Sequence record: OQ031076 | Reading direction: 5' to 3' (one strand) | Origin: Shigella phage SFP20 | DNA: 39,499 nt | Shown here: positions 14,704 through 31,588 of the stretch, in pieces | Layout of the letters: each line of letters begins with the position of its first letter | How positions within the stretch are numbered: the first letter of the stretch is position 1 | The notes under the pieces: generated by a model | Seen by the model: only the letters and a program-made list of their open reading frames with translations | Database searches by the model: none | What the model was told of the DNA's origin: nothing | Program-made: the position numbers and the translations under genes

Positions 14704-14747
14704 GACTCAAGGTCATTACCACTATATGTAGTGGCCTTTATGATTAA
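14704..14747 (+). promoter_or_regulatory. putative RNase III processing stem-loop (R18.5 position)
   Basis: GACTCAAGGTCATTACCACTATATGTAGTGGCCTTTATGATTAAC: two-stem hairpin with conserved GACTCAAGG and GGCCTTTATGATTAAC flanks, repeated at other intergenic sites. Confidence 0.55.
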
Positions 14748-14801
14748 CACACACTACGAGCGGTGACGCTACGTGGATTCTGAGAAATGAGGAGGGCAAC
14801 T

Positions 14802-15251
14802 ATGCTCGAACTTTTACGTAAAGCAATCCCGTGGCTGGTTGCAGGACTCCTGTTCTGCTCTGGCTATTGGGTAGCTGATAATAAGTGGGAGGCGAAGGTA
14901 AACAATGAGTACATCACGAAACTTGAGGCACGAGAGAATCAACGGGCTGCTGTCCAAGGTGAAATCGACAAAGTGTCAGCAGAGTGGCAAGACAAGATGT
15001 CCGCGCTGGAAGGCTCTACTGATAGGATTATTGCTGACCTTAACCGCGATAACAAGCGGCTGCGCATCCGAGTCAAACCCACCAGTGGAACAGTCCAGAC
15101 TGACGGTCGATGCGTCATTGATGGTTACGCCGAACTTGACGAACGAGATGCTAAGCGTCTTATCGCCATCGGACTGAAAGGTGACGAATGGATTAAGGCC
15201 CTCCAGAAGACCGTGAGAGCCATGCAGCAAGAGAAGGAGGTGAAACCTTGA
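14802..15251 (+). CDS. 18.5: Rz-like i-spanin (gp18.5)
   Basis: [18 protein letters not shown]... closely matches T7 gp18.5 ([21 protein letters not shown]); start chosen at the ATG at 14802 behind RBS GAGGAGG (the track ORF begins at 14787). Confidence 0.88.
14905..15177 (+). CDS. 18.7: Rz1-like o-spanin lipoprotein (gp18.7), embedded in the +1 frame of 18.5
   Basis: 90 aa; begins MST and contains a lipobox-like [12 protein letters not shown] matching T7 gp18.7 (ATISGCASES); entirely inside gene 18.5. Confidence 0.8.
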   Translation: MSTSRNLRHERINGLLSKVKSTKCQQSGKTRCPRWKALLIGLLLTLTAITSGCASESNPPVEQSRLTVDASLMVTPNLTNEMLSVLSPSD

Positions 15252-17011
15252 GTCAAGACTTAGCAGCGCGTCAGGCGCTTATGACTGCCCGTATGAAGGC
15301 AGACTTCGTGTTCTTCCTGTTCGTTCTGTGGAAAGCTCTGTCACTTCCTGTTCCGACTCGCTGTCAGATTGACATGGCGAAGAAGCTATCGGCTGGGGAC
15401 AACAGGCGCTTCATCTTGCAGGCGTTCCGTGGTATCGGGAAGTCCTTCATTACGTGTGCCTTCGTGGTCTGGAAGCTATGGAATAACCCGGACTTGAAGT
15501 TCATGATTGTGTCGGCCTCAAAGGAACGAGCCGATGCGAACTCAATCTTCATCAAGCGTATCATCGACCTCATGCCTCAGCTCCAAGAGTTGAAGCCTAA
15601 GCAGGGGCAGCGAGACGCAGTAATCAGCTTTGACGTAGGACCTGCCAAGCCTGACCACTCTCCTTCGGTTAAGTCCGTTGGTATCACTGGTCAGTTAACT
15701 GGTAGCCGTGCTGACATCCTGATTGCCGATGACGTAGAGGTCCCCGGTAACTCCGCTACTCAGGCAGCACGGGACCGACTGTCAGAGCTGGTGAAAGAGT
15801 TCGACGCAATCCTGAAGCCGGGTGGTACGGTTATCTATCTGGGTACTCCTCAGACCGAGATGACCTTGTATCGACAGCTTGAAGGTCGTGGTTACTCAAC
15901 TACCATCTGGCCTGCCCGCTACCCACGTGATGAGAAGGACTGGAAGTCTTACGGCGACCGTCTGGCCCCGATGCTTCAGGCCGAGCTTGAGTCCGACCCT
16001 GAGGGCTACTACTGGCTCCCTACCGATGAGGTTCGATTCGACGATGAGGACTTGAGGGAACGTGAGCTGTCTTACGGTAAGGCTGGCTTCGCTCTCCAGT
16101 TCATGCTCAACCCGAACCTTGGTGATGCCGAGAAATACCCGCTGAAGCTGCGTGACCTTATCGTAGCGGACTTGGACCCTGAGTCAAGCCCTATGGTCTA
16201 CCAGTGGCTCCCGAACCTTCAGAACAAGCGTGAGGACGTTCCTAACGTGGGACTCATGGGTGATTCCTACCACACGTATCAGACTGTAGGTTCTGCCTTC
16301 AGTTCGTACACCCAGAAGATTCTGGTCATTGACCCCAGTGGTCGTGGTAAGGATGAGACCGGGTATGCGGTACTGTATCAGCTCAACGGCTACATCTTCG
16401 TGATGGAAGCTGGTGGTATGCGCGGTGGCTATGAGGACTCTACGCTGGAGTCTCTGGCGAAGATTGGTCGCAAGTGGAAGATTAACGAGTACGTCATTGA
16501 GGGTAACTTCGGTGATGGTATGTATCTCGAACTCTTCAAGCCTGTGGCGGCTCGTATTCACCCGGCAGCAGTAACTGAGGTCAAGAGCAAGGGTCAGAAG
16601 GAACTACGCATCTGTGACGTTCTGGAGCCTATCATGGGGTCCCACAGACTCATCGTGAACTCCTCGACCATTGTGTCTGACTACCAGACTGCCGCTGACA
16701 AGGATGGCGTCCGTAACCCTATCTACTCCCTGTTCTACCAGATGACCCGTATCAGCCGTGAACGTGGGGCCTTGGCACACGATGACCGACTTGATGCTCT
16801 GGCTATCGGTGTACAGTTCTTCGTAGAGTCTATGGCTAAGGATGCCGTTAAGGGACAGCGTGAAGTCACCGAGGAGTGGCTGGAGGAACAGATGGAAGAC
16901 CCACGGAAAGGCTTTAAGTCCATCGAGACGGACTACTGGGACAATGGTGTCCGGGTCCAGTTCAATACAGATGATGACTTGGGCTTAGGGTCCTACGTAC
17001 AGTTCCACTAG
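15248..17011 (+). CDS. 19: terminase large subunit (gp19), apparent TTG start
   Basis: 587 aa; extensive identity to T7 gp19 ([134 protein letters not shown]). The track's first codon is TTG at 15248, preceded by RBS AAGGAGG. Confidence 0.95.
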
Positions 17012-17103
17012 CAGTTTGCATAAAGTACCGCTTTAGTTGCATGAATACGCACTATGTAAGTCGGTACATAACGCTCGTAACTCTATGTATTCCTTAGGAA
17101 AAT

Positions 17104-17126
17104 CTTATACCCTCACTATAGGAAAG
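17104..17126 (+). promoter_or_regulatory. phage RNAP promoter (phiOR position), CTTATACCCTCACTATAGGAAAG
   Basis: Promoter family match downstream of gene 19. Confidence 0.8.
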
Positions 17127-29236: not shown

Positions 29237-30940
29237 ATGTCATATGAAGACCAAGAGCAGGACGATAGTGTCTTCCTCTACCACACCGAGTGTCCAGACT
29301 GCGGGTCTTCGGATGCCAATGGTGTTTACTCAGATGGGCATATGTACTGCTTTGCGTGTGACCCGTCAGTCGCTTGGAAGAAAGGCGACATGGAATTGAC
29401 AGAAGGTTACAGACCTTCAGGAGGCGGTAAGCAAGTGAGCAATCTGTTAACGTGGAGTGAGAACTCTGGACGCTATGTCCCGCTCCCGGCCCGTGGACTA
29501 TCGGCTGACATCTGCAAGAAGTACAGCTACTGGGTCGGTATGATGCAGGGCAAGATGGTGCAGGTGGCAGACTACTACGACAGGTCCGGGACCAAGGTAG
29601 GACAGAAGGTCCGAGACGCTGAGAAGAACTTCACGGCTATCGGTAGCGTCAAGAACGACTTACTGTTCGGCTCACAGCTTTGGTCTGGTGGCAAGAAGAT
29701 TGTCGTGACCGAGGGTGAGATTGACTGCCTGTCCGTGGCTCAGATTCAGGAAGGCAAGTACCCGGTGGTCTCCCTGCCGTTAGGCGCAAAGGCCGCGAAG
29801 AAGACGCTGGCAGCGAATCTTGAGTACCTCGACCAGTTCGACGAGATTATCCTGATGTTCGATATGGATGAACCCGGTCGTCAGGCTGTGGAGGAGGCAG
29901 CTCCAGTCCTGCCAGCAGGCAAGGTTAAGGTCGCTTTCATCAACGGGTACAAAGACGCCAACGCTGCACTTCAGGCCAAGGACTTCAGGGCGATTCAGGA
30001 TGCAATCTGGAACGCAGTACCTTTCGTCCCGGCTGGAGTCGTGAGCGCCAAGTCACTGAAGGACCGGACCCGAGAGGCGATGCTTAAGGCTGAGACTGAA
30101 GGTCTGCTGTTCTCCTCCTGTACAGCACTTAACGCGATGACCCTCGGTGCGAGAGCTGGTGAGCTTATCATGGTGACTTCAGGGTCAGGCATGGGTAAGT
30201 CTACCTTCGTGCGTCAGCTCCTCTTAGAGTGGGGCAGAGGAGGTAAGCGTGTGGGCATGGCGATGCTGGAGGAGTCAGTCGAGGAGACCGTGCAGGACCT
30301 GATGGGTCTGGACAATAACGTCCGTCTCCGTCAGTGCAAGGAACTGAAAGAAGCTATCCTCAAGGATGGTCGGTTCGACGAATGGTATGACAAGCTGTTC
30401 AACGACGATATGTTCCACCTCTACGACTCGTTCGCTGAGTCCGAAGAAGACACGCTGTTCGCTAAGCTGGCCTACATGGTTGACGGGCTGGACTGCGATG
30501 TCATACTGCTGGACCACATCTCAATCGTGGTGTCTGGCATGGAAGATAACTCAGATGAGCGTAAGACCATCGACCGCATCATGACTCGCCTCAAGAAGTT
30601 TGCGAAGACTAAGGGTGTGGTTGTCGTGGTCATATGCCACCTGAAGAACCCGGAGAAAGGCAAATCACATGAAGAAGGCCGTCCTGTTAGCATCACTGAC
30701 CTTCGTGGTTCTGGTGCTCTGCGTCAACTCTCTGACACAATCATTGCCTTGGAGAGAAATCAGCAAGGTGATACTCCTAACGTTGTCCAGCTTCGCTTGC
30801 TTAAGTGTCGCTTTACTGGCGATACGGGCATTGCGGGACACCTTGAGTACAACAAACTCACGGGCTGGCTTGAACCGATTGTCCTCTCTGCGAGCAGCGG
30901 AGGAGAAGATTCTGGCTCGTGGGAAGACCAAGACTTCTAG
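29237..30940 (+). CDS. 4: DNA primase/helicase (gene 4)
   Basis: 567 aa; N-terminal Cys4 zinc ribbon (CPDCGSS ... CFAC); [33 protein letters not shown]; Walker A GSGMGKST; [11 protein letters not shown]; [35 protein letters not shown] as in T7 gp4. Confidence 0.97.
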
Positions 30941-30999
30941 TCCTCAATACTTCTGGATTGACGAGTGGGAAGAACTTAATGAACAAGACCGGAGGAACA

Positions 31000-31530
31000 A
31001 TGCGAAACTTAATCAGCGGTAAGACCCTCAGTGAGTTCCAGAACCAGCTTGGCCCGAAGGAGGGCCTTAACGTCTTCACGACACGCTGCACTGGCAGGAC
31101 CAAGAGTCGCGCCTTACTGTTCATCTCCACGGTTATGGTCCAAGGGTCTATGGACATCGGGCCTCTCCGTGGCAACCTCGGTGATGATGAGGTCAATTAC
31201 ACCAAGATGGAAATCATCAAGTCCCTAGACCAGATGCAGCTCGTAGGCTTCTCGTGGTCCGGTGACGTTCTGTCCTACTACCCGTTTGAGGAGTATCAAG
31301 ATGTTAAAGAGGTTGTGCGAGAAGTTAAAGTCGAAGTATCACCTTTCGCTGGCGAAGTGGTATCACCACGAAGCTACCGTGTTGTCGAACATTCTGAAGG
31401 ACCAGCGGTTCCAGTCGATAGCTTGGAACAAAGCTACCCAGAAGTGCGCGTATCATCTGGCGAGAGTGCTGTAGTCCCGATGGAGGTCATTGAACCTCTG
31501 GTCCCGGACATGACGCCTCCCAAGCAATAA
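31000..31530 (+). CDS. hypothetical protein (gene 4.3-4.7 region)
   Basis: 176 aa from the ATG at 31000 behind RBS GGAGG, within the track ORF 30919..31530; this frame has the G-rich first codon positions typical of the other genes here. Confidence 0.45.
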   Translation: MRNLISGKTLSEFQNQLGPKEGLNVFTTRCTGRTKSRALLFISTVMVQGSMDIGPLRGNLGDDEVNYTKMEIIKSLDQMQLVGFSWSGDVLSYYPFEEYQDVKEVVREVKVEVSPFAGEVVSPRSYRVVEHSEGPAVPVDSLEQSYPEVRVSSGESAVVPMEVIEPLVPDMTPPKQ

Positions 31531-31548
31531 GCCCTCACTGTAGGATAG
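31526..31548 (+). promoter_or_regulatory. phage RNAP promoter variant, AATAAGCCCTCACTGTAGGATAG
   Basis: Family match with TGTA in place of TATA. Confidence 0.65.
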
Positions 31549-31588
31549 ACTCAAGGCCATTCACATCGAGTGGTCTTTATGATTAGAC
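31548..31588 (+). promoter_or_regulatory. putative RNase III stem-loop upstream of gene 5
   Basis: GACTCAAGGCCATTCACATCGAGTGGTCTTTATGATTAGAC; same flank motifs as the other candidate sites. Confidence 0.5.

Follow-up and report, generated by a model that had tools for sequence, protein, structure and literature searches.

Intergenic hairpins of the K1F-like Shigella phage SFP20 form a repeat family of very probable RNase III processing signals

Sequence record OQ031076 of Shigella phage SFP20 was analysed over its whole stretch of 39,499 nt (hereafter, the window) for a family of intergenic hairpins that resemble the RNase III processing sites of phages T7 and T3. The window is a complete, circularly permuted T7-type genome, K1F-like (Kayfunavirus-like) and belonging to the T7 group, as read from its map of open reading frames (ORFs) and from the annotation of Cronobacter phage GW1. 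The permuted genome opens at the ATG of capsid gene 10, and the plus strand carries all of the genes as well as about 12 phage promoters of the form CCCTCACTATAGGA. Joining the end of the window to its start (junction 39499/1) gives ...GGAGAATTATCAT followed directly by the ATG that starts gene 10, as in GW1. Genes 19 and 0.3 are separated by a non-coding stretch (approximately 17100-18550), and it is there that the real genome ends, the terminal repeat and early promoters of host type are to be expected. When positions 14000-34000 were compared by megablast, T7-like phages were matched, the closest being GW1 (Kayfunavirus, 90% identity) and Shigella phage SFP21B (92%). Flanking genes were identified with PHROGs and with the GW1 and T3 annotations.

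An initial annotation of the window, made from its letters alone, had listed five hairpins with shared flanks as probable RNase III sites. All five were found where it had placed them, with the sequences it named at their coordinates, and a sixth was added. The six sites are all on the plus strand and all in intergenic gaps. The scores given below refer to a covariance model, model R1, which was built from an alignment (A2) in which the four strong sites of the window match seven sites each from T7 and T3 column by column; the window was searched with the filters off.

14686..14759, plus strand: canonical, occupying the R18.5 position between genes 18 and 18.5 (61.4 bits, in the training set).
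18548..18630, plus strand: divergent site at the R0.3 position (17.8 bits, E 0.2, match in the flanks only; z -2.2).
19421..19488, plus strand: canonical site directly before the 0.7 kinase gene, which starts at 19506 (59.5 bits, in the training set).
20228..20297, plus strand: sixth site, canonical and absent from the initial annotation (32 bits, E 1e-4, outside the training set).
24268..24338, plus strand: canonical, occupying the R1.1 position ahead of genes 1.1 (24351) and 1.2 (62.8 bits, in the training set).
31530..31598, plus strand: canonical site just before DNA polymerase gene 5, which starts at 31604 (54.1 bits, in the training set; z -3.9).

The analysis confirmed that these hairpins constitute a real repeat family. 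The 5′ motif GACTCAAGGYCAT was exact at 14704 and 31548 and recurred with one mismatch at 24287 and with two at 19439. Allowing up to three mismatches, the 3′ motif GTGGYCTTTATGATTARAC had three copies (14731, 24310 and 31570), where shuffled sequences are expected to yield 0.07, and two of these three copies needed two mismatches. The 3′ flank consensus proposed at the outset was slightly too strict at the last bases. Folding of the five sites listed initially gave, in every case and on the sense strand, a lower stem, an asymmetric internal loop and an upper stem, with z scores from -2.2 to -3.9. The weakest of them was 18555-18625, where the match to the family is confined to the flanks (17.8 bits, E 0.2) and a 49-nt branched insert lies in between. 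The four strong sites scored between 54 and 63 bits with model R1, all four of them being part of its training set. No Rfam 15 covariance model matched anywhere in the window at its gathering score.

The sites differ in their surroundings. The neighbours of 14686-14759 are gene 18 (small terminase, stop at 14697) and gene 18.5 (Rz spanin, start at 14787); its predicted cut falls after 14741 (CCUUUAU↓GAUU, the arrow marking the cut), 45 nt upstream of the start codon, and the element is 100% identical to its GW1 counterpart. The divergent site 18548-18630 precedes gene 0.3, of the S-adenosylmethionine (SAM)-hydrolase type (start at 18650), and shows the flanks AACUCAAG...CUUUCUGAUAAUCAC around a 49-nt branched upper stem, with a predicted cut after 18618; it could be aligned with the R0.3 sites of GW1, K1F, T3 and T7. 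The site at 19421-19488 is of the ACAGG...CCUGA subtype, as in site R1 of T7 and T3, and its predicted cut lies after 19470. The added site, 20228-20297, sits between the stop of the 0.7 kinase gene (20240) and a small ORF at 20301, with a predicted cut after 20279. It folds with a z score of -3.9, none of 200 shuffled sequences folded as well, and its orthologues in GW1 and K1F carry compensatory changes in the upper stem. The element at 24268-24338 directly follows and overlaps the phage promoter 24270-24283 (predicted cut after 24320). Similarly, 31530-31598 has a promoter at 31532-31545 on its upstream side, a position like that of T3 R4.7 and a predicted cut after 31580, and the 3′ strand of its lower stem includes the Shine-Dalgarno sequence AGGAG of gene 5.

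The window sites were compared with those of T7, whose R1.1 is the standard substrate of RNase III. The T7 cleavage coordinates, which we take to be those of Dunn and Studier (1983) and which were checked for internal consistency only, all fall at a single motif position, ...CCTTTAT↓GAT. At these coordinates R0.5 reads GACTCAAGGTCGC...GTGGCCTTTAT↓GATT, R1.1 reads AACTCAAGGTCAT...GTGGCCTTTAT↓GATT and R18.5 reads TACTCAAGGCCAC...GTGGTCTTTAT↓GGAT, while R0.3, R1, R1.3 and R4.7 are variants of the same sequence. The seven T7 sites R0.3, R0.5, R1, R1.1, R1.3, R4.7 and R18.5 share with the window sites the core ACUCAAGGUCAU...GUGGCCUUUAUGAUU, the two-stem fold with an asymmetric internal loop, the sense strand and the intergenic placement. 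The statement that T7 R0.3 contains CCTTTATGAT was correct, and the same sequence is also present in R0.5 and R1.1. Published work on a 60-nt T7 R1.1 RNA reports primary products of 47 and 13 nt and a secondary cut that gives 28 and 19 nt (PMC4858673; PMC3839596). Our R1.1 cut position agrees with these sizes. The 5′ product ends in a 28-nt stretch that is exactly CAAGG...CCUUUAU, and the primary and secondary cuts together give the stagger that RNase III is expected to produce. No RNase III features appeared in the feature tables obtained for T7 records NC_001604 and V01146. T3 record AJ318471, for its part, annotates 10 stem-loops as 'RNase III recognition site' (R0.3, R0.5, R1, R1.1, R1.3, R3.8, R4.7, R6.5, R13 and R18.5).

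The gene junctions that carry sites in both T7 and the window are those before genes 0.3, 1.1 and 18.5 and the one after 0.7. Three of the correspondences drawn in the initial annotation were borne out: 14704 has gene 18 on one side and Rz spanin gene 18.5 on the other, as R18.5 does; 24288 comes after a promoter and before genes 1.1 and 1.2, as R1.1; and 18555 precedes the SAM-hydrolase-type gene 0.3, as R0.3. Its equation of 19441 with R0.5 had to be given up, because the position directly before gene 0.7 is that of T7 R0.7 and the sequence is closest to site R1 of T7 and T3. The 31548 site, real but left without a counterpart there, sits before gene 5 like T3 R4.7. The window differs from T7 in having a canonical site directly before 0.7, where T7 R0.7 is non-canonical, in the 49-nt branched insert of its R0.3 site and in the promoters that abut the sites at 24270 and 31532. 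It also differs in the absence of R1.3 before the ligase gene, where there was no room for such a site and no match to model R1. The layout of T3 is the nearest to that of the window: promoter phi1.1 overlaps R1.1, gene 5 comes directly after R4.7, genes 18 and 18.5 flank R18.5 and gene 0.3 belongs to the SAM-hydrolase type, but T3 has no phage promoter before R4.7.

Matches to model R1 at E<1 in T7 and T3 were all known or annotated sites, and R6.5 of both phages was matched although it was outside the training set. In K1F (DQ111067) and GW1 (MH491167), matches were found at the same gene junctions as in the window, K1F differing by an extra site at 696-773; none of these elements is annotated in the K1F and GW1 records.

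GW1, six matches to model R1: 16760, 6773, 11480, 23823, 12631, 10599.
K1F, six matches to model R1: 36437, 5556, 12844, 1019, 1757, 696.

The likeness of the cut region to mapped T7 sites also bears on whether the hairpins are cleaved at all. They could act as passive 3′ stabilisers, control translation by sequestering ribosome-binding sites, or bind RNase III while resisting cleavage. Stable sense-strand hairpins do lie 21-45 nt before start codons, the lower stem of 31530-31598 pairs with AGGAG of gene 5, and R1.1 variants that are bound yet uncut by RNase III have been documented (PMC1540722). However, the cleavage-proximal sequence is near-identical to that of T7 R1.1, R0.5 and R18.5, which are cut in vivo as well as in vitro, and effects on stability and translation are known outcomes of cleavage rather than an alternative to it. 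We consider hairpins that act without being cut to be very unlikely.

Structural conservation was assessed at two scales. The RNAalifold consensus of alignment A2 comprised 17 pairs in two helices, and 10 of the 17 pairs showed compensatory changes. An exact-pattern scan of IMG/VR then provided at least 120 loci, nearly all on contigs of 38-41 kb, and 168 model R1 sites were located in 80 of the IMG/VR loci listed. Across the 117 distinct phage-contig sequences, standard pairs made up 94.1% of the pair cells, compared with 24-50% in slid controls; compensatory double changes occurred in 14 of the 17 pairs, and none of 500 shuffles reached the observed values. The covariance over related phages that had been suggested as a check is present. 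One 74-nt site matched 730 phage records by blastn, mostly T7-like phages of Klebsiella, Escherichia, Salmonella and Yersinia. Single-sequence folds, RNAalifold and covariation alike bore out a two-part helix, about two turns long, that an asymmetric internal loop interrupts. The window sites and the mapped T7 sites have in common the conserved core ACUCAAGGUC(A/G)...GUGGCCUU(U/C)AUGAU, and the unpaired bases of the internal loop (ACUC, AUGA) are nearly invariant, at 1.3-2.0 bits. Conservation in the pattern-fixed columns of alignment A3 is inflated, because the search pattern fixed part of the motif and the alignment was fitted to the model. In five of the six sites the sense fold was more stable than the antisense fold owing to G-U pairs, indicating a function at the RNA level.

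The conserved loop invites a further alternative, namely that loop and flanks serve a second trans-acting factor, encoded by phage or host, or a DNA-level role, such as a minor host promoter, besides or instead of RNase III. The conservation of the unpaired bases would fit such a role, a sigma-70-like TTACCA-17-TATGAT occurs inside the 14704 site, and in the T7 and T3 records the minor E. coli promoters B, C and E adjoin R0.5, R1 and R18.5. Yet part of the loop conservation is an inflation due to the search pattern, the region holds promoter-like matches at chance level (14 against 10.6 expected, with one of the six sites having one), and the compensatory changes and G-U pairs speak for RNA structure; we consider this alternative very unlikely too, marginally below the preceding one. 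Intrinsic transcription terminators or pause sites have a negligible probability: the terminator-like scan picked up 14719-14734, followed by CCTTTATGAT, but its total was at chance (15 against 13.7), a proper U-run follows the stem at none of the sites (one of six was flagged, weakly), and essential genes lie immediately 3′ of the sites within the same transcription units.

Altogether, the hairpins are very probably mRNA processing signals for RNase III of the type found in the T7 group. This reading, which the initial annotation had already offered as probable, is supported by homology to mapped sites, by synteny and strand bias, and by the sequence family with its fold and covariation; from these we infer cleavage in the window phage, where exactly it falls and how it affects stability and translation. 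In the polycistronic phage mRNA, each element would form a lower stem (about 8 bp), an asymmetric internal loop that is conserved (ACUC on the 5′ side, (U/C)AUGA on the 3′ side), an upper stem of 9-11 bp, AAGGUCAU...GUGGCCUU, and a variable loop, the two stems together spanning about two helical turns. By homology with T7 R1.1, host RNase III would bind this quasi-continuous helix and cut the 3′ strand only, inside the internal loop (CCUUUAU↓GAU). The proximal upper-stem pairs of 14704, 24288 and 19441 are identical to those of T7 R1.1 and, judged by this identity, these sites should be free of the proximal-box and distal-box antideterminant base pairs named in the rule of Zhang and Nicholson. 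After cleavage, the upstream mRNA would be left with a protective 3′ hairpin, and the downstream mRNA, its lower stem dissolved, would start 21-45 nt upstream of a start codon; at the gene 5 site, the cut could unmask the Shine-Dalgarno sequence AGGAG. Internal loops are known to confine RNase III to a single phosphodiester, and the 3′ hairpin left behind gives protection from exonucleases (PMC1540722).

The phage itself may contribute to this processing through its protein kinase.

19506..20240, plus strand: gene 0.7-type serine/threonine protein kinase (244 aa; PHROG 15752, E 1e-105).

PHROG 15752 is described as 'positively regulates RNaseIII', and the T7 0.7 kinase phosphorylates RNase III, raising its turnover (PMC4858673); the window kinase probably acts in the same way. 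The protein is short, with 244 aa against 359 aa in T7, and apparently has just the kinase domain, the C-terminal domain for host shut-off being absent. In K1F the 0.7 kinase gene is missing altogether, yet RNase III-type sites are kept there.

Several points weigh against reading the hairpins as RNase III signals. The site at the R0.3 position is a weak match to the model (E 0.2), alignment A3 was fitted to that model, and its loci were collected by means of a pattern in which part of the motif is fixed. The T7 cleavage coordinates were checked for internal consistency only, and cleavage data for K1F-like phages were not found in the literature, the K1F and phiYeO3-12 genome papers lying outside the search. 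In addition, E. coli RNase III is not known to need positive sequence determinants, so that its recognition does not fully explain the conservation of the loop bases. The near-invariant loop bases (ACUC/UAUGA) and the proximal upper stem are kept in paralogues and across T7-, T3- and K1F-like genera; that a second, unrecognised constraint, or concerted evolution by gene conversion, lies behind this seems improbable to us, if less so than the alternatives weighed above. A second constraint could be a specific loop fold, or a phage or host partner that enforces single-strand cleavage or couples processing to translation.

If they are RNase III signals, the elements mark boundaries of the phage mRNAs, with predicted 3′ hairpins on one side and 5′ ends before genes 0.3, 0.7, 1.1, 5 and 18.5 and before ORF 20301 on the other. 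They are textbook T7/T3 signals in a K1F-like genome, and RNase III biology gains nothing new from them; their value lies in annotation, where model R1 separates true sites cleanly in T7 and T3. Because no Rfam model matched, model R1 and the 117-sequence alignment could seed a curated RNA family.

One further match to model R1 in the window was doubtful.

38400-38469, plus strand: doubtful match to model R1 (E 6.5).

It was rejected as a family member and taken as a separate 5′-terminal hairpin. The short sequence GACTCAAGG, with its complement CCTTGAGTC, is the commonest 9-mer of the window, ranking above the promoter core with 11 copies (six on the plus strand and five on the minus strand), and is for this reason a weak marker on its own.

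4234(-), 15246(-), 17876(-), 22611(+), 25441(-), 35710(+), 39106(-): examples of further copies of GACTCAAGG/CCTTGAGTC, with strand.

The three plus-strand coding copies checked read CTC-AAG-G (Leu-Lys), and two minus-strand copies read CTT-GAG-TC (Leu-Glu-Ser). With these coding frames, codon chance together with the site family is probably the simplest account, and GACTCAAGG was dismissed as a genome-wide motif. GACCAAAG, considered as a second repeat family, was non-coding only at 20808 and 35601, the remaining copies being coding. The copies of GACTCAAGG that the initial annotation had seen after promoters at 20776 and 39400 are present, but at 20781 and 39406. Neither qualified as a half-site: no model R1 score was obtained there even at E<=10 with the filters off, and both are arms of other conserved hairpins. 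At 20781, GACTCAAGG is the 5′ arm of a hairpin (20772-20828) before RNA polymerase gene 1, with AGACCAAAGAGAC as the 3′ half. The copy at 39406 belongs to the 3′ arm of the 5′ stem-loop of phi10, GGGAGACC...GGUUUCCC, and at that place K1F has GACTCAATG.

Other hairpins lie outside the family. At 29179-29215, a 13-bp hairpin, GGGAGAGGACUUCGGUCUUUUCCC, followed by CCCTTTTGTCGCATT, starts at a promoter-like sequence (29171) just before the primase/helicase gene 4. It aligns with R3.8 of T7 and T3, of which it is a homologue, the interior of its stem covaries among the window, GW1, K1F, T7 and T3, and its 3′ flank CCCTTTGTTCG is conserved. It probably represents another, second class of RNase III site, absent from the initial annotation. 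Before gene 13, a perfect 9-bp inverted repeat within 4324-4377, GGCCTATAG (4329-4337) and CTATAGGCC (4364-4372), encloses the promoter at 4349 and is followed by CCTTTAAGTT, an arrangement that is the same in K1F. Since the promoter is enclosed, like phi13 in the T3 R13 stem, only read-through transcripts could form this stem. The promoter at 35581, before gene 6.5, is likewise enclosed, by a stem at 35534-35618 of 11 bp plus GGUCCA/UGGACC (z -5.1). In the 11-bp stem, K1F differs by a T>A / A>T change that is compensatory, and the architecture resembles R6.5 of T7 and T3 without the family flanks, which T3 R6.5 does carry. The three structures (29179-29215, 4329-4372 and 35534-35618) are likely to be further processing structures outside the family.

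Directly upstream of the RNA polymerase gene, at 20769-20828, the promoter CCCTCACTAGAGGA (one mismatch) overlaps an interrupted hairpin of about 20 bp, whereas T7 and T3 have no phage promoter directly upstream of this gene. The hairpin 20772-20828 shows almost no variation in GW1 and K1F (91% column identity), and the region may be an autoregulatory promoter, a processing structure like site R1, or both. Lastly, strong 5′-terminal stem-loops were found on the phi9 transcript (38410-38463, z -4.2) and on the phi10 transcript (39389-39420, z -6.5), the latter being the counterpart of the T7 phi10 leader hairpin GGGAGACC...GGUUUCCC.

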